The notes: generated from the sequence alone by a model not told the origin. DNA of 64,000 nucleotides from a virus (IMGVR_UViG_3300037418_002332), one strand, 5' to 3'; counted from the first letter of the stretch, positions 1 to 8,891 are shown. Translations and numbers: made by a program.

Positions 1-560
1 AATGATACTGTATCATCAACTTCAACACTTGCTACTCATGCTGCTGCTTCAATAACAGAAGCAGATGACACTTCATCTTCTGCATCAACTATTACATTAA
101 AAGCGAATGCGTCAATTACGGAAGCAAATGATACTGTTTCGTCAACTTCTGCAATTGCTATCAAAGCAGCTTCAACAGTAACTGAAGCAAATGATACTGT
201 ATCTGCTATAGTACAGTTGACACCTATTGCTGGTGTTGCTTCAATAACAGAAGCTGATGACTCTGTTAGTTCAACTTCAACGAATTTGACTCATGGTAAT
301 GCTTCTATAACGGAAGCAGGTGATACGTCAACTTCAGCATCAACTCTCTCTTTGAAATCTGTTGCTACAATAACAGAAGCAGATGATACTGTTTCGTCAA
401 CTTCTGCAATTGCTATCAAAGCAGTTTCAACAGTAACTGAAGCAAATGACACTATCGTTTCCGCCTCTGCAATTGCTATCAAAGCCAATGCTTCCGTAAC
501 AGAAGCTAACGATACTATTTCGTCTACCAGCACACTTGTAATCAAAGCAACATCAGCGTC
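1..560 (+). repeat. Coding tandem repeat block, 63-nt/21-aa period (about 9 units)
   Basis: Recurring ACNGAAGCAAATGATACT-type units encoding TEA(N/D)DT. Confidence 0.85.
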
Positions 561-3500
561 AGTTATCTCTCAAACTGATGACTCTCAGAGTGTTGGTATA
601 GGTCGAGATACTTCAACTCAATCTATAAATCAAACAATAATTCCGCCAGCGAACATCAATCTTAACTCGATTACGCTTGAAATTTCTAAAATTGTTGCAC
701 CAACAGATGATTGGTTTGTTGAGGTTCGTAGTGGCGACGGTGCCACATTAATCGCAACATCAAATGCGTTTAATGCATCTAGTATAGTTTCAGGTTTCAA
801 CACATTTACATTTGCTTCACCAGTAGCGCTGACCGGTGGAACCACTTATATGCTTAGATTGAGAAGAACTACACTTAACTTCTCAAATTACTTGATTGTG
901 TGGTATTCATACCCGTCACTATATCCATATGGTGAAGCATACATCTATGATGGTTCAAATTATAATTTGCTAGATGGCGACTTGTATTTCAAGTTGAACA
1001 CAGTTGGTGTAATCATTGAATCGAATGATACTGTTTCGTCAACAACAACCATTGCGATCAAAGGTTCGGCCTCGAACACAGAAGCAGGAGACACGGTATC
1101 ATCAACCGCAAAACTGCTAATCTATGCCAATCTCAGCAAAGGTTACTATCAAACCAATTCTGGCGATTTAAATTTTAACTGGTCTGGTGGTTCGGCGGTA
1201 TCTGGTGACAAATCTATCATGCTTGCTGCGGCGTGGGAAGATACTGTTGGCTATCCATGGATTTCGACAGATCGTGGTAATTCGTGGACAGAATTGAATA
1301 GCAATGGTCTGCCTTCTGCTAATTATCAGCAGGGTAGTGTGGCGTCATCTTATGACGGCAACCTGCTTGTCGCAGTTGCCAATAACAGCGACGTTTATAT
1401 TTCCACTAATCGTGGCGTAACATGGACATTATCTGTTTCGTATACTTCTGTAACTGGTCTAGAGATATCCGCTGATGGCAGTACGATTTATGTCTCGCCT
1501 AATAGTGGTGTGTATGTCTCAACTAATAGTGGAGCAACATGGAACGCTGGAACAGGAATTTCCGGTGCCTTCCGTGGTGTTTCCTGCTCTAGCAATGGTG
1601 TAATCGCTTACGTTTATTCCGGCACTCAACTGTGGAAAACTATAGATTCGGGTGCGACATGGACACAAAATACTACGATTGACGCACTTGTTGATGCAAA
1701 CTCTCTTGTCTGCTCTGATGATGGCTTGTTTGTTGGGGTAATCGATGAACCTTCATGGCCAAATGCAAACTACAATCGTTCATTTGATGGTGGTGTAACG
1801 TGGACTACATCCTCTCCATTTTCTCATGGATTTAAGATTGGTGCGTCACAAGACGGCTCAATTCAGTATGCTCTTGGTGCTATTGGCGCTGATCCTGCTA
1901 CACTAATAACATCAATCGATTATGGTGTAACGTGGACTGGCGTTGGCACTCCTATTGGCAACATCACCAATTATCAAATGTCAGTTTCGGCCGATGGCCG
2001 TTTTATGTTCTTTTTGAATGATGATGATTGGACATTCTATGCTTATGATCTTGTCAGTCCAATTACAGAAGCCGACGATACCGTATCATCAACATCTGTA
2101 CTTGCAATCAAGGCAACAACAGATAGTGTAACTGGTGCTGTCAATGTATTGCTTGCTAATGATAACGGCTTTAGTTGGGTATATCCATTAGTTTCTGGTG
2201 ATGGATCAGTATTCATGGTGATGGCAAGTTCTGCACCATGGGCATCTTATGATCGAGGTGCAACTTGGGCTGCACTGACTGGCGCACCAAATCTACAATG
2301 GAATGTTGGTGGATCGTCATATGACGGTAATGTGATTATCGGTGGTGCATGGGCATCAACAACTCACCTGTACAAATCTACCGATAAAGGCGCTACGTGG
2401 ACAGGCATCCCAGCTACGCTGACCAATGCATCGCATGGTGGTACATGGTCTGCAATCGGAGTTTCAGGTGATGGCAATGTGATTGTTGCTGGTGAAGCTG
2501 GCACAACCAACATCATCTTGTCCAATAATGGCGGCACGTCTTGGACACAAAAGACTGGATTTGGCGGCGATTCTACTTGGAAGGGTAACGATTTTGCGCT
2601 GTCAAACGATGGTTCTATCATTTATGCAACTTTCCTAAAAGGTGATATCACCACTGGAAAGTTATATAAGTCTACAGACTCAGGAGCAACGTGGAGCGAA
2701 CTGACTTCTGCTGGAACACATGCGTGGGCGGAAGTTGCGTGTTCATCAAATGGATCTTACGTAACAGTTACAGCTTATGGTAGCCTAGCATACCGTTCAT
2801 CTGACGGCGGTTCTACTTGGACGCAAATTACTGATGCAGCAACAAATGTGTATGGTGTTGCTGTATCGTCAGATGGTTCAATTCAGTACATTTCTGCAAA
2901 TGACAGCGTAATTCGTTCTACAAATTTCGGTGCAACTTGGACACAGGAAACTGGTACTGATACACCATACAATGACTACATCGCTGCGACTGCAGATGGT
3001 AGTGCATCTTTGTGGATCAACTACGACACCTATTATCTTGAAGGTTTCCAACAAATATCCACTCATCTTGTCGAACAGGATGACACAATCAGCTCAACTG
3101 CTGTGTTGATCAATGGTGTTACAGCAAATGCTTCTATTACAGAAGCTAATGATACTATATCATCTGTTGCCCATAATCCAATTGTTGGTCTTGTTTCTAA
3201 TAGTGAAGCAAGTGACTCAGTTAGTTCAACTGCAACAATTCAAATCAAAGCTGTTGTAACTATCACAGAAGCAAATGACACTGCTGGTTCAGCATCTGTT
3301 CTACCAATCAAGGGCGCAGAATCAAACGCGGAAGCTGATGATACAATTTCATCAACTGCAATTCTGTTGCTTAAAGCTGCATCTACAGTAACTGAAGCGA
3401 ACGATACTTCTACATCAACCGCAGTCATCACCATAAAAGCAAATGCTTCAAATACAGAAGCAAATGATAGCATTTCTTCAACTTCTGTTCTTCCGAACAA

Positions 3501-4710
3501 GGCTGCGAGTGCTGTAACGGAAACTGATGATAGCATTTCTTCAACTTCTGTGTTGCCGATCAAAGCGGTTGCGATCGTTACAGAAGCTGATGATATAGAA
3601 TCATCAGTTGCTCATAATCCAATTGTTGGTACAGCTTCTGATACGGAAGCAGATGATGCTATATCATTTACTGGTGTTCTTCCGATTAAAGCTACTTCAG
3701 GAGTCACTGAGGCAAATGATACTGTAAGTTCAACAAGTACAATTTTGATTAAAGCAGCTGCTTCTATCACTGAAGCGAACGATAGTATTGCATCAACTGC
3801 AATCCTGCCAATTCTAGCTGTTTCAAACAATACTGAAGCAAACGATAGCATTTCTTCAACAAGTTCTGCTCCTGTATTAGCTGTATTGAATTCTGTTGAA
3901 GCGAACGATAGCGTCAACTTCGCTTCAGTGATTACTTTGAAGGCAAATGCTTCAATTACTGAAGAAGATGATAGTCTAAGTGCTTCCGCAGTTAAATTCA
4001 ATCCTGGTGAAGCAGTTGCAAATATAACTGAAGATGATGATACAGTCAATTCAACTTCATTTATTACTTTGAAAGGCGCATTGGCTGTCACTGAATTAAG
4101 TGATACGTCAAGTTCAACTGCAACTTTGAAGATTGTTGCTGCTTCCGCAAATTCAGAAGCAAGTGACACCATTTCATCCACTTCTGCTTTGTTGGTTAAA
4201 GCAAATGCATCAAATGCGGAAGCAAATGATTCAGTAGCATCTACCTCAATTGTTCAAATTAGAGCAGCGGCAAGTATTACTGAAGCAAGTGATATTGTTT
4301 CAAGTGATACTCAATCAAGTATATTTGCCACAGTCAACGTTATTGAAGATGACGATATTGCTTCAATTTCTTCAAGATTGTCAATCAATTCATCAGCTGA
4401 TCTATTTGAAGATGACGATATCGTAAGTTCTACTGCAAATGTTGATGTTGTAGCTGGTGAAACTACTGTTGAAGATGACGACATCATCTTGGCAATAGGT
4501 GAATTGGTCATTCAGGCTGTTTCCGAAAATGTTGATGATGACGATACAATCGCTTCAATTGGAAAACTTTTGATTCTAGCAACTTCTGATATCATTGAAG
4601 AAAATGATCATGTAGATGCGCAAAATCAAAGATTTGGAACTTGGATTACAGCAGAAACATCCAAAAATCCAAAGACTGTTAAAACACTATACTATGCTGA
4701 CATATTGTAA
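1..4710 (+). CDS. Large Ser/Thr/Ala-rich putative virion/surface protein (5' truncated): 21-aa repeats, one beta-sandwich domain and two BNR/Asp-box beta-propeller regions
   Basis: Frame is open from base 1 (NDTVSSTS...), so the start lies outside the window. About 35 repeats of (I/V)TEAxDTxSST; many SxDxGxTW Asp-box motifs; ends just before the prohead genes. Confidence 0.75.
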   Translation, partial: NDTVSSTSTLATHAAASITEADDTSSSASTITLKANASITEANDTVSSTSAIAIKAASTVTEANDTVSAIVQLTPIAGVASITEADDSVSSTSTNLTHGNASITEAGDTSTSASTLSLKSVATITEADDTVSSTSAIAIKAVSTVTEANDTIVSASAIAIKANASVTEANDTISSTSTLVIKATSASVISQTDDSQSVGIGRDTSTQSINQTIIPPANINLNSITLEISKIVAPTDDWFVEVRSGDGATLIATSNAFNASSIVSGFNTFTFASPVALTGGTTYMLRLRRTTLNFSNYLIVWYSYPSLYPYGEAYIYDGSNYNLLDGDLYFKLNTVGVIIESNDTVSSTTTIAIKGSASNTEAGDTVSSTAKLLIYANLSKGYYQTNSGDLNFNWSGGSAVSGDKSIMLAAAWEDTVGYPWISTDRGNSWTELNSNGLPSANYQQGSVASSYDGNLLVAVANNSDVYISTNRGVTWTLSVSYTSVTGLEISADGSTIYVSPNSGVYVSTNSGATWNAGTGISGAFRGVSCSSNGVIAYVYSGTQLWKTIDSGATWTQNTTIDALVDANSLVCSDDGLFVGVIDEPSWPNANYNRSFDGGVTWTTSSPFSHGFKIGASQDGSIQYALGAIGADPATLITSIDYGVTWTGVGTPIGNITNYQMSVSADGRFMFFLNDDDWTFYAYDLVSPITEADDTVSSTSVLAIKATTDSVTGAVNVLLANDNGFSWVYPLVSGDGSVFMVMASSAPWASYDRGATWAALTGAPNLQWNVGGSSYDGNVIIGGAWASTTHLYKSTDKGATWTGIPATLTNASHGGTWSAIGVSGDGNVIVAGEAGTTNIILSNNGGTSWTQKTGFGGDSTWKGNDFALSNDGSIIYATFLKGDITTGKLYKSTDSGATWSELTSAGTHAWAEVACSSNGSYVTVTAYGSLAYRSSDGGSTWTQITDAATNVYGVAVSSDGSIQYISANDSVIRSTNFGATWTQETGTDTPYNDYIAATADGSASLWINYDTYYLEGFQQISTHLVEQDDTISSTAVLINGVTANASITEANDTISSVAHNPIVGLVSNSEASDSVSSTATIQIKAVVTITEANDTAGSASVLPIKGAESNAEADDTISSTAILLLKAASTVTEANDTSTSTAVITIKANASNTEANDSISSTSVLPNKAASAVTETDDSISSTSVLPIKAVAIVTEADDIESSVAHNPIVGTASDTEADDAISFTGVLPIKATSGVTEANDTVSSTSTILIKAAASITEANDSIASTAILPILAVSNNTEANDSISSTSSAPVLAVLNSVEANDSVNFASVITLKANASITEEDDSLSASAVKFNPGEAVANITEDDDTVNSTSFITLKGALAVTELSDTSSSTATLKIVAASANSEASDTISSTSALLVKANASNAEANDSVASTSIVQIRAAASITEASDIVSSDTQSSIFATVNVIEDDDIASISSRLSINSSADLFEDDDIVSSTANVDVVAGETTVEDDDIILAIGELVIQAVSENVDDDDTIASIGKLLILATSDIIEENDHVDAQNQRFGTWITAETSKNPKTVKTLYYADIL
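3067..4620 (+). repeat. Coding tandem repeat block, 63-nt/21-aa period (about 25 units)
   Basis: Units from LVEQDDTISST to IIEENDHVD counted in the translation. Confidence 0.85.
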
Positions 4711-5578: not shown

Positions 5579-6232
5579 ATGAAACTACTTAGAGAAATCA
5601 ACGAACAAGTTGAATACCTTACAGAAGCTGATGCTAAAACTGGCAATAAGAAGTATATTCTGGAAGGAATTTTCCTTCAAGGTAATCTAAAAAACAAAAA
5701 TGGTAGAATTTATCCTGTTGACGTTCTTGAAAACGAAGTAAATCGATACAATGAACAATATGTCAACAAGAATAGAGCATATGGTGAATTGGATCACCCA
5801 TCTACACCATCTATCAATTTGTCAAATGCAAGTCACGTCATTACTGAACTTACAAAAGTTGGTGACAACTTCATTGGTAAAGCACGTGTTCTTACTGAAA
5901 CTACAAAAGGCAAAACTGTAAAAGCCATCATGGATGAAGGTTTGTCTCTTGGTGTTTCATCAAGAGGTATGGGTGCCTTGAAAGAAGACAAGTCAGGTTC
6001 AAAAGTTGTTGAACAATACTTCTTGACAACTGCTGCTGACATTGTTGCTGATCCTTCTGCTCCTGATGCATTTCCAGAAAATGTATTTGAAAATGTTGAA
6101 TGGATTTTGACTAATGAAGGTTGGATTAAGCAAGAAGCTGGATTCAAACTTGTTCAAGAAATGAAACAAAAGTCTAAAGTTGAACGTGAAGAACAGTTCT
6201 TCAGAGCGTTTAAAGCACTTTTGAACAGCTAA
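5579..6232 (+). CDS. gp21: Prohead protease
   Basis: EGIFLQ, NKNGRIYP, GELDHP, GVSSRGMG and DIVADPSAPDAF motifs. Confidence 0.97.
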   Translation: MKLLREINEQVEYLTEADAKTGNKKYILEGIFLQGNLKNKNGRIYPVDVLENEVNRYNEQYVNKNRAYGELDHPSTPSINLSNASHVITELTKVGDNFIGKARVLTETTKGKTVKAIMDEGLSLGVSSRGMGALKEDKSGSKVVEQYFLTTAADIVADPSAPDAFPENVFENVEWILTNEGWIKQEAGFKLVQEMKQKSKVEREEQFFRAFKALLNS

Positions 6233-6244
6233 GAACTACACTCT

Positions 6245-6252
6245 TATAAATA
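6245..6252 (+). promoter_or_regulatory. T4-type late promoter TATAAATA
   Basis: Exact consensus upstream of gp22. Confidence 0.85.
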
Positions 6253-6283: not shown

Positions 6284-7492
6284 ATGGCTAAAAAGCTTGA
6301 AGAACTTTTGAAAGAACAAGAAGATGAACTTCTTCAAGGTTCAGATGAAGCAACAGACGAATTGAACGAAGAAGCTGTTGATGACGAAGCATCTGATGAA
6401 GTTGATGCTCCAGAAGCTGAACTTGAAGACGAAGAAGACGCTGAAGAAGTCGAAGAAGCTGCATATCCTTCAATCGATTTCCAAAAGGAAAAAGTTAAGG
6501 GCGGAAAAGGCGGCAAGGCTGTTTATCCAACCGTTGACTTCAAGAAATCTGTAGCAAAAGGTGGTGCTCAACAACCTGGTAAAATGGCGAAAGTCGATTT
6601 CAAGGGTGATAGAGACGGCAACACCAATAAAAAGACTCCAGTTGATCCAGAATCATATCCAAAAGTTAGACCAAACTTCGAACCTGAAGTTGTTGCTAAC
6701 ATGACCAGAGAAGATATCTCTGACGAAACAAGAGCGCATCTTGCTAGCTTGTTCGCAGGTGAAGAACTTTCTGAAGAATTCATTGCGAAAGTACAAGAAA
6801 TTTTTGAAGCAGCTGTTATCGTAACTGCTCAAGAAGCTCTTAACGCAAAAGTAAAAGAAATTGTTGAAAAGTATGAAGCTTCATTCGAAACAGTTCTTGA
6901 AACTGCAGAAGCTGAAGTTGAAACTTACAAGCAAGAATTGAATGAAAAGTCAGACGCATACTTTGATTACGTTGTTGAACAATGGGTTGAAGAAAACAAA
7001 CCAGCTGTTCATGCAAATATCAAGTCTGATTTGACTGAATCATTCATCAAAGGTCTACAAAATCTATTCGTCGAACATTACATTGATATCCCTGACGACA
7101 AAGTAGAAGTTGTGGAAGAAATGGTTGAAGAACTTGAAGCACTTCGTGATCGTAACGAAGAAATTCTTCATGAAAATCTTCAATTGAAGACTGAAGCCAA
7201 GAACGTCGTTAAGTCATTCTTGATCAGAGAGCATACAAAGGACCTTTCAGAAAACGAAAGAGAAAAGTTCCAAGCTTTGGCTGAACATATTTCTTTCGAT
7301 GATGAAAAATCTTTCCAAGGCAAATTGAGTGAAATCAGTGACACATATTTCAATGAATCAGTTGTTGTTGAGTCATCCCTTGAAGATGATACACCATTGG
7401 AAACTATCGAAGAAGAAGTGAAACCAGTTGGTAAAGAACTAACTGAAGTTGAAAGTATGGCTGCAATGATGACTAAGTTCCTCAAAAAATAA
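6284..7492 (+). CDS. gp22: Prohead scaffolding core protein
   Basis: Acidic coiled-coil with YFDYVVEQWVEEN and LFVEHYIDIP motifs; between gp21 and gp23. Confidence 0.92.
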   Translation: MAKKLEELLKEQEDELLQGSDEATDELNEEAVDDEASDEVDAPEAELEDEEDAEEVEEAAYPSIDFQKEKVKGGKGGKAVYPTVDFKKSVAKGGAQQPGKMAKVDFKGDRDGNTNKKTPVDPESYPKVRPNFEPEVVANMTREDISDETRAHLASLFAGEELSEEFIAKVQEIFEAAVIVTAQEALNAKVKEIVEKYEASFETVLETAEAEVETYKQELNEKSDAYFDYVVEQWVEENKPAVHANIKSDLTESFIKGLQNLFVEHYIDIPDDKVEVVEEMVEELEALRDRNEEILHENLQLKTEAKNVVKSFLIREHTKDLSENEREKFQALAEHISFDDEKSFQGKLSEISDTYFNESVVVESSLEDDTPLETIEEEVKPVGKELTEVESMAAMMTKFLKK

Positions 7493-7497
7493 AAAAA

Positions 7498-7505
7498 TAT
7501 AAATA
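7498..7505 (+). promoter_or_regulatory. T4-type late promoter TATAAATA
   Basis: Exact consensus upstream of gp23. Confidence 0.85.
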
Positions 7506-7535: not shown

Positions 7536-8891
7536 ATGAATAATGAACTTGAAAAGCTTTTGGAAAAGTGGAACCCAGTTCTCGACCTTGATGGTCTTCC
7601 AAAAATTGCTGATTACCATAAAAGAGCAACTACAGCAGTTCTGCTTGAAAACCAAGCAGTTGCTAACAAAGAAACAGTTCGTAGAGAACCATCCCTTTCT
7701 TTGACTTACTTGATGGAAGCTGCTCCAACAAACAGCATGGGTACTTCAGAAGCAGGTACTGGTAACATCGATTACCAAGACCCAATCTTGATCTCCCTTG
7801 TTCGTCGTTCAATGCCTAACTTGATGGCATATGACGTTTGCGGCGTTCAACCAATGACTGGCCCAACCGGCTTGATCTTTGCTCTTAGATCACGTTACTC
7901 AGCTCAAGATGGTATCGAAGCTTTGTTCAACGAAGCTAACACCACTTTCGCTGCATCTGCTGCAGGTAACACTGCTTCAGTAACTGCTGCTGGTTTGCAC
8001 ACCGGTGCTGATCCTTCCCTTCTTATCTCATCAGGTAATACTGCTTACTTGACTGGTAGAGGTATGTCAACTGCTGCTCTTGAAGCACTTGGCGATAAGT
8101 CAACCAACGCTTTCCAAGAAATGTCAATGAGTCTTGAAAAGATCGCCGTTACTGCGGAAGCAAGAGGCGTCAAGGCTGAATATACCCATGAACTTTCACA
8201 AGACTTGAAGGCAACTCACGGTCTTGATGCTGAAAGCGAATTGGCTAACATCCTTTCAAAGGAAATCTTGGCTGAAATCAACCGTCAAGTTATTCGTTCT
8301 ATCTATACAACTGCTACCATTGGTGCACAACAAGGCGGTCTTGCGCAAGCTGGTTACTTCGACCTTGATGTTGACTCAAACGGTCGTTGGATGGAAGAAA
8401 AGTTCAAAGGCTTGATGTATCAAATCGAAAGAGAATGTAACGCTATTGCGCAAGCAACTCGTCAAGGTCGTGGTAACTTCATTATCACTTCTTCAGACGT
8501 TGCATCCGCTCTTTCAATGATCGGTATCTTGAAGTCAACTGATGGTCCTGACCTTCAAGTTGATGACACTGGTAACGTTTTTGCAGGTACCATCCTTGGT
8601 AAGATTAAGGTCTTCATCGACCCTTACTTCACCTCAAACGCTGGTAACAACTTCATCGCCGTCGGTTACAAGGGTTCATCACCTTTCGACGCTGGTATGT
8701 TCTACTGCCCATACGTTCCTTTGACCATGTACAGAACTCAAGGTCAAGATAACTTCCAACCAAAGATTGGTTTCAAAACCAGATACGCTCTCGCAGCGCA
8801 TCCTTTTGCTACCACCGCTGCGGATGGTAAAGTTCATGTTAACAAGAAGAACAAGTACTACAGATTGTTCGCTGTTAAGAACCTTACATAA
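7536..8891 (+). CDS. gp23: Major capsid protein
   Basis: LVRRSMPNLMAYDVCGVQPMTGPTGLIFALR, LAEINRQVIR, FYCPYVPL and KIGFKTRY motifs. Confidence 0.99.
   Translation: MNNELEKLLEKWNPVLDLDGLPKIADYHKRATTAVLLENQAVANKETVRREPSLSLTYLMEAAPTNSMGTSEAGTGNIDYQDPILISLVRRSMPNLMAYDVCGVQPMTGPTGLIFALRSRYSAQDGIEALFNEANTTFAASAAGNTASVTAAGLHTGADPSLLISSGNTAYLTGRGMSTAALEALGDKSTNAFQEMSMSLEKIAVTAEARGVKAEYTHELSQDLKATHGLDAESELANILSKEILAEINRQVIRSIYTTATIGAQQGGLAQAGYFDLDVDSNGRWMEEKFKGLMYQIERECNAIAQATRQGRGNFIITSSDVASALSMIGILKSTDGPDLQVDDTGNVFAGTILGKIKVFIDPYFTSNAGNNFIAVGYKGSSPFDAGMFYCPYVPLTMYRTQGQDNFQPKIGFKTRYALAAHPFATTAADGKVHVNKKNKYYRLFAVKNLT

Follow-up and report, generated by a model that had tools for sequence, protein, structure and literature searches.

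The 64,000-nucleotide (nt) stretch of DNA analysed here (the window), from the virus IMGVR_UViG_3300037418_002332, an uncultured T4-like phage, begins inside a giant gene on the (+) strand that encodes a modular protein made of 21-residue repeats, beta-propellers and beta-sandwiches, for which we propose a role as an accessory fibre or adhesin. A frame of 1569 codons is open from window base 1 and ends at a stop codon at 4708-4710. The segment 1..4710 represents the C-terminal part of the gene, given that its translation is 100% identical to part of a database protein of 2616 amino acids (aa), P0002, in which window residue 1 corresponds to residue 1048. The window edge thus cuts the frame, leaving 1047 codons (the 5' 3141 nt) upstream and outside, and the complete protein is two-thirds longer than the part seen in the window. 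An earlier note on this DNA had described a giant repeat and propeller protein of more than 1570 aa; the very large frame stands, but that length was set by the edge and not by the protein.

Within the window the protein starts with eight tandem 21-aa repeats (1..570, about aa 11-190, motif cores at aa 19-167), the first unit continuing an array that begins upstream. They are followed by a beta-sandwich (568..1005, aa 190-335), two linker repeats (991..1140, cores at aa 339 and 360), a first Asp-box beta-propeller (1153..2055, about aa 385-685), a lone linker repeat (2041..2103, core at aa 689), a second Asp-box beta-propeller (2113..3045, about aa 705-1015), a C-terminal repeat array with 24 motif cores (3046..4608, aa 1024-1532), whose final units are more acidic and more hydrophobic, and a C-terminal tail of 33 aa (4609..4707), all of them on the (+) strand. 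The folded domains of this part are parted by one or two repeats. The open reading frame (ORF), the motif counts and an AlphaFold2 (AF2) model agree on this order of repeats, sandwich, two Asp-box propellers and repeat linkers, which is the one that the earlier note had given.

The AF2 model covers window residues 1-1040 with a mean predicted local distance difference test score (pLDDT) of 66.7, ranging from 77 to 95 in the sandwich (residues 190-335), from 66 to 92 in propeller 1 (about 390-685) and from 50 to 81 in propeller 2 (about 770-990), and falling below 50 in the linker repeats. The strict Asp-box S-x-[DN]-x-G-x-x-W is found 11 times, five in propeller 1 and six in propeller 2, and such a repeated motif within a propeller fold, seen by motif, AF2 and Foldseek, marks both domains as BNR/Asp-box propellers; the matches to Pfam BNR and BNR_6 themselves were sub-threshold. 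In Foldseek searches with the window model the top PDB matches were GH74 tandem propellers (expectation value, E, 1.6e-17; 15-18% identity). The window propellers are therefore like GH74 xyloglucanases and other Asp-box propellers (BNR, Sortilin-Vps10 and Ycf48-type) in fold, tandem arrangement and Asp-box motifs, but here a repeat unit stands between the two, and both form part of a fibre-like chain. GH74 enzymes carry a catalytic Asp pair in the cleft between their two propellers; the likeness seen here is one of fold.

Upstream of the window P0002 opens with a propeller at its N-terminus (residues 1-368), after which come an additional Asp-box propeller (about 390-700), a pair of sandwiches (746-884 and 890-1012) and the beginning of the repeat block that runs on into the window; inspection of its N-terminal sequence revealed no signal peptide-like features. 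The whole protein therefore carries one conserved N-terminal seven-bladed propeller, three Asp-box propellers and three beta-sandwiches, of which two Asp-box propellers and one sandwich lie in the window. By BLAST the window sandwich is a paralogue of both upstream sandwiches and also of an insert in the N-terminal propeller of relatives (P0003 and P0005). The 33-aa tail differs from the longer one of P0003, P0004 and a 677-aa ORF at locus L004 (14605-16638), a C-terminal tail common to these three in which a doubled [ST]-Y-D-x-Y-L-x-x-F motif follows the last repeats; P0004 has repeats and this doubled-motif tail without an N-terminal propeller.

The 21-residue repeat is the most pervasive element of the protein. 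Its motif [TVAISF]-E-x-x-D occurs 35 times in the window protein, in agreement with the previous count of about 35 TEAxDT-type units, and the spacing is exactly 21 aa in 27 of 34 intervals, while 1000 shuffled versions of the protein gave a mean of 0.79 and a maximum of four. Over the 38 units of the whole protein the Glu and the Asp are invariant and no other position is, and the consensus approximates x-I-K-A-x-A-S-I-T-E-A-N-D-T-V-S-S-T-S-x-L, with alternating hydrophobic positions. Because the units share on average 40% identity in amino acids and 52% in nucleotides, and Tandem Repeats Finder reported a single array of 2.3 copies, with hardly any tandem repetition at the DNA level, the array appears to be old and diverged and to be maintained at the protein level, and a recent expansion is rejected on these grounds. 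The strict period and the alternating hydrophobic residues, kept despite 40% identity, point to a folded regular structure and not to a loose linker. AF2 models each unit as one long strand plus a loop. A three-copy complex prediction of the last 329 residues, which scored 0.00 against a mark of 0.42 and whose fold was uncertain, speaks neither for nor against a trimer.

The repeat belongs to a large family. PHROG 38872, a family of unknown function, was matched both by the window part (P0001, E 1.5e-34, in the C-terminal array) and by the full-length protein (P0002, E 4.8e-33), and no Pfam family was matched by the repeat. A profile built from the last 329 residues and their relatives retrieved 2912 cluster representatives at E<=1e-3, of which 1523 remain at a cut-off of 1e-10 and 287 at 1e-30, and 43 of 50 proteins found with it and scanned against PHROGs matched PHROG 38872. 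Among the best 150 matches the median number of repeats is 13, the array starts at about residue 281 and 69 residues separate its last core from the C-terminus; a Pfam scan of 70 of these 150 placed a Laminin_G_3 (concanavalin A-like) domain at the start of 14 proteins and F5/8C in one, and left 55 with no family. Several tails of repeat proteins end in a short hydrophobic stretch (for example ...LLAA). The ESM Atlas neighbours of the repeat were viral clusters without names and nothing else, and full-text literature searches returned no description of the repeat or of the protein.

Relatives of the N-terminal domain were retrieved in a different way, given that a search with full-length P0002 yielded none, whereas an alignment of the N-terminal 370 residues used as query in a scan of IMG/VR found this domain encoded at 22 loci. 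The products range from 375 to 2147 aa and their distal modules are freely swapped; in most members a sandwich is inserted after the first 20 residues, and E-x-x-D repeats are present at seven of the 22 loci (L002/3/5, L004, L019, L022 and L023). Phage fibre or receptor-binding proteins usually show this combination of a conserved N-terminal domain and exchanged distal modules, which at the level of sequence would place the giant protein in this class.

The N-terminal domain was modelled with AF2 on the homologue from the T4-like phage G001 (537 aa, 17-row alignment), giving a sandwich plus a seven-bladed propeller with pLDDT 74.5 and a predicted template-modelling score (pTM) of 0.73. The nearest structures in VIA include the CylK propeller at Z 27.9 and, at Z 27.3-27.4, the lectins BP39L and PLL, the latter two superposing with a root-mean-square deviation of 3.0-3.3 A over 311-326 residues, and polysaccharide lyases, glycosidases and many unrelated seven-bladed propellers score close behind. 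Foldseek placed sialidases bearing carbohydrate-binding modules at the top (E 1e-9), and the BFVD matches of the model are to propeller domains in fibre-type proteins of phages. The conserved propeller thus shares the seven-bladed fold of the Photorhabdus lectins PLL and PHL and of Burkholderia BP39L, but identity is just 8-12% and generic seven-bladed propellers of other function score nearly as high. The alignment of the N-terminal propeller has 22 invariant columns, including Q, H, Y, E, R, Y, R and a terminal N-D-N-G-T-L-K-Y-x-E, which suggest a conserved pocket. GH33 sialidases have a six-bladed propeller, an Arg triad and a Tyr/Glu nucleophile pair. A comparison with this family gave no better than E 0.03 for the profile against PDB sequences, by way of the Asp-box; seven-bladed propellers align best to the model, and R, Y, E and D are among the invariant columns of the alignment.

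Downstream, the giant gene abuts P0099 (4754..5572, +), which encodes 272 aa with an acidic N-terminal half and two basic helical modules, each starting directly behind an L-x-E (LDE|ISKK... and LVE|LSRK...). The basic module is shared, at the level of weak PHROG 5709 matches, with both ORFs that separate the portal gene from gp21 in G001, and P0099 is probably a prohead core protein processed by gp21. Comparison of its sequence with solved structures gave no meaningful match, and its identification as a gp14 homologue was tried and rejected by comparison. It is followed by a gp21-type prohead protease (5579..6232, +; PHROG 207, E 4e-68; Pfam Peptidase_S77), the gp22 scaffold (6284-7492, +) and the gp23 major capsid protein (MCP; 7536-8891, +). 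Exact T4-type TATAAATA late promoter boxes precede the last two, at 6245-6252 (32 nt before the gp22 start) and at 7498-7505 (31 nt before the gp23 start), and none lies between the giant gene, P0099 and gp21; the three TATAAATA matches in the window overall are not above chance. The order continues with gp3-like, UvsY, UvsW, gp55, gp47, gp46, peptide deformylase, peptidase and CobS genes, and matches that of T4-like cyanomyoviruses such as Syn1. The capsid protein shares 69% identity with its counterpart in G001 and 68% with the one in G002, compared with 54% for Syn1 and 47% for the more distant G003, the three G genomes being uncultured T4-like phages from IMG/VR that were used for comparison.

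In all three of these relatives the portal gene (PHROG 213, E 1e-172 or better) is followed by one or two core-like ORFs and gp21, and the homologue of the giant gene lies outside the core cluster. G001 and G002 share the order gp13, a PHROG 3758 gene (134 aa), a methyltransferase-like ORF of 192 aa, giant gene, gp14 and gp15, with the giant gene of G001 located 14.7 kb upstream of gp21, and in G003 the homologue is found among fibre-type genes immediately upstream of gp13 and gp14. Because the portal precedes the core genes and the giant gene sits elsewhere in 3/3 relatives, its position in the window is best read as a lineage-specific relocation. The earlier proposal that the giant gene occupies the place of the portal gene holds as far as it abuts the core-like gene and gp21, but in part this impression arises because the window is cut at that point.

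We examined the gene context at 14 distinct loci of the N-domain family, and in 13 of them head, packaging or connector genes lie within about 4.5 kb. The gene is located between gp13 and gp14 (L002/3/5 and L004) or directly upstream of gp13 (L007) in T4-like phages, and elsewhere in arrangements as diverse as giant gene, HNH, TerL and MCP (L008); TerL, two small ORFs, giant gene and portal (L013 and L020, the L013 contig ending in the giant gene, and L021 with the same ORF layout, compared for layout only); portal, ORF, giant gene, ORF, scaffold and MCP (L016); MCP, portal, ORF, a PHROG 3758-like ORF (by BLAST), giant gene and adaptor (L019); TerL, ORF, giant gene and MCP (L022 and L023, the latter with PHROG 3758 before the giant gene); giant gene, Hc1, a head morphogenesis gene and Neck1 (L011); an adaptor gene upstream of the giant gene (L006); tail-spike-like ORF, methyltransferase-like ORF, giant gene and TerL (L009); and a giant gene flanked by endolysin and integrase (L012). 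Fibre or spike genes are also adjacent at L002, L007 and L009.

A small gene of PHROG 3758, annotated as a virion structural protein, precedes the fibre gene at L002, L004, L019 and L023 and also in two cultured phages, Curvibacter phage P26059A and Vibrio phage 367.14; compared with solved structures its product gave a chance-level MS2 coat match alone (per-stretch E about 6). P26059A is a siphovirus by morphology, and the passages seen of its description are silent on gene 0007 (PMC5964084). This gene encodes 394 aa that are nearly all repeats, in the order TerL, portal, 0004, 0005 (PHROG 3758), 0006, 0007 and later an XkdF-type protease, decoration protein and MCP. Vibrio phage 367.14 has two hub genes, a gpV-like ORF of 179 aa, PHROG 3758, a repeat protein of 542 aa and wedge genes, in that order. 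Both PHROG 38872 proteins have the same 21-residue repeat, with invariant E-x-x-D, and are preceded by PHROG 3758, but these short forms consist of repeats and one end domain at most, without propellers and with no assigned function. PHROG 3758 by itself follows the central tail fibre gene J of Caulobacter phage Seuss, and in Pan4 it closes the tail module. The cassette of PHROG 3758 and fibre gene appears therefore to be portable among head, neck, tail-end and baseplate operons, and given its presence in such differing late operons, the position of the gene says little about the function of the product or its location in the virion.

Taken together, we consider it probable (roughly 60%) that the product is a modular accessory fibre or adhesin of about 270 kDa on the outside of the virion and not a cargo of the head. 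The stretches of 21-residue repeats would form its shaft and spacers, with glycan-recognition modules strung along them, and its likely role would be the reversible binding, and possibly the cleavage, of polysaccharide from the host or the environment; the gene would be part of a mobile late-gene fibre cassette carried in head, neck, tail-end or baseplate operons. The domain architecture thus supports, as to kind, the fibre with glycan-binding propellers that had been put forward as one of two models, and a glycan-binding role is accepted as likely from the domain types. If the product is a fibre, attachment at the neck or head would have a little less than an even chance and attachment at the tail or baseplate slightly less than that, while a site elsewhere seems improbable.

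Several observations weigh against the external fibre. The AF2 confidence for the repeats is low (pLDDT 48-72), and the repeat profile gave no match at E<=1 to sequences of solved structures, so that a rigid shaft would be supposed from the regularity of the sequence. Gene positions disagree between lineages. The N-terminal propeller family was not found in cultured phages by tblastn of the N-terminal region, and one scan of bacterial genomes with the single pattern NDNGTLKY, which could miss prophage copies, returned no relative. In addition, the invariant Arg, Tyr, Glu, Asp and His columns could be an active site, making the protein a depolymerase instead of a pure adhesin, and the homologue at L009 is an N-terminal propeller by itself (375 aa), which a free enzyme or lectin would fit equally well.

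These last points bear on the possibility that the protein is soluble, made late and released at lysis as a free polysaccharide-binding or -degrading factor, for instance a depolymerase or a biofilm-active protein. The solitary propeller gene of L009, the invariant charged and aromatic columns, which suggest a catalytic or binding pocket, and the presence of polysaccharide lyases and glycoside hydrolases (PL25, GH74) among the structural neighbours would all be in line with it, but long regular arrays and a virion-structural partner such as PHROG 3758 are typical of assembled fibres and the gene always lies within late structural operons, which makes this alternative unlikely. Less probable still is a prohead cargo cut by gp21 at many I-T-E|A sites to release the folded domains, the second model of the earlier note. 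The phage's own gp23 carries L-M-E|A at residues 59-62, the basic modules of the core-like P0099 stand right behind L-D-E and L-V-E, and 19 [IL]-x-E and 10 ITEA sites are present in the portion of the giant protein encoded in the window, its gene adjoining core and protease genes. The same repeat, with both Glu and Asp invariant, is nevertheless found in phages without a gp21-type protease, namely P26059A (XkdF-type) and those of L022 and L023 (protease fused to the MCP), and because the repeat also occurs with other head proteases the ITE|A sites are not evidence for cutting by gp21. The position that would be P3 for the protease varies over the 38 units (I in 16, V in nine and N in seven), whereas E and D are kept in 38/38, and the N-terminus, MALPVTITGI..., is near-invariant in phages whose heads are of other types and forms a propeller strand in the model, not a cleavable targeting peptide. 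Thus the giant protein resembles the T4 internal and core proteins processed by gp21 in its (I/L)-x-E motifs and in a gene adjoining gp21, but it has no targeting peptide, its repeat is independent of protease type, its propellers of lectin type and its sandwiches are outward-facing in known relatives, and its gene lies outside the core cluster in the three T4-like relatives, so that the cleavage model finds no support.

A narrower version of the external location is a Hoc-like or fibritin-like decoration anchored on the capsid or on the gp13/gp14 collar. In T4, wac is located near gp13 and gp14 in the gene order, and Hoc is a dispensable surface adhesin built as beads on a string, with Ig-like domains and a capsid-binding C-terminal domain. 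The gene between gp13 and gp14 or immediately before gp13 in the T4-like relatives (L002/3/5, L004 and L007), its place beside portal, TerL, scaffold or MCP genes in other lineages (L008, L013, L016, L019, L020, L022 and L023), the repeat gene between portal and protease in P26059A and, in the window, the giant gene abutting the core-like gene and gp21 with no T4-type late promoter between them would favour such an anchor. Other carriers argue for the tail, since the cassette of PHROG 3758 and repeat fibre lies within the baseplate operon of Vibrio phage 367.14, PHROG 3758 stands after J in Seuss and at the tail-module end in Pan4, and fibre or spike genes adjoin at L007 and L009; moreover, Pfam scans recognised no capsid- or collar-binding domain and no Ig-type family at E<=0.1, and helices of four or more residues are absent from the AF2 model, which spans window residues 1-1040. 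On the proposed reading the giant protein would share with Hoc the character of a dispensable beads-on-a-string surface adhesin, but it is far larger and has neither an Ig-like domain nor a recognised capsid-binding one among the families scanned; it would share with fibritin, which forms the collar whiskers and is marked by trimeric coiled-coil segments and a C-terminal foldon, a long segmented shape and, in relatives, a gene among neck genes, but the window model is all-beta, with no coiled coil, and no foldon-like end was seen in the protein. We regard a head- or neck-anchored decoration of these types as possible but less likely than not. Within the favoured reading of an external accessory fibre, a more specific proposal is that the E-x-x-D unit builds an undescribed, possibly metal-stabilised beta shaft of phage fibres, used with PHROG 3758 as a plug-in cassette in head, neck or baseplate operons, and has grown in this lineage into a multi-lectin fibre of 270 kDa with its anchor at the head or neck, as a counterpart of Hoc in adherence; we advance it tentatively, at well under an even chance.

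Giant fibre and adhesin genes are common in large phages, and the protein itself is of a known kind, sizeable but fairly ordinary. The repeat represents a large phage-restricted family, with no name or structure, that probably forms the shaft of many accessory fibres. The repeated pairing of this family with a small partner gene, in late operons that differ widely, suggests that the fibre cassette is portable and offers a handle on how phages gain adhesins. The cultured carriers of the short form, P26059A and Vibrio phage 367.14, open both its location and its structure to direct testing. The case also indicates that, where a structural repeat encoded beside gp21 contains (I/L)-x-E motifs, these need comparison across phages before they are read as protease sites.

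Some further features were observed at the related loci. In G002 the homologous gene (L004 9461-16638) is present as three ORFs of 1327 aa (ending within a propeller), 374 aa and 677 aa, the last with 19 repeats and the conserved C-terminal tail; either the gene has been split, or a frameshift or an error of assembly interrupts it. An ORF of about 190-220 aa that resembles S-adenosylmethionine (SAM) methyltransferases (GxGxG, weak Pfam Methyltransf_11) lies directly before the fibre gene in four lineages, abutting or overlapping its start (L002 9423-10001, L004 8886-9461, L007 9445-9999 and L009 5390-6049), and its product may modify the fibre or its ligand. A galactose-3-O-sulfotransferase-like ORF is present in the fibre and neck region of G001 (L002 6468-7121).

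In Vibrio phage 367.14 the 179-aa ORF (L034 7767-8306) has, by reading of its sequence, the look of a spike of the P2 gpV or Mu gp45 type with an H-x-H apex, and the PHROG 3758 and repeat-protein genes are placed between this spike-like ORF and a gpW-like wedge gene. Pan4 (L033 9001-12229) and P26059A (L030 4980-7480) have in common a trio of PHROG 3758, a protein of about 300 aa (homologous to P26059A gene 0006) and a fibre starting with an FDxAIFD-type sequence; the Pan4 fibre, of 630 aa, appears to have a different 21-residue repeat, rich in Gly, Ser and Thr and without the E-x-x-D pair.

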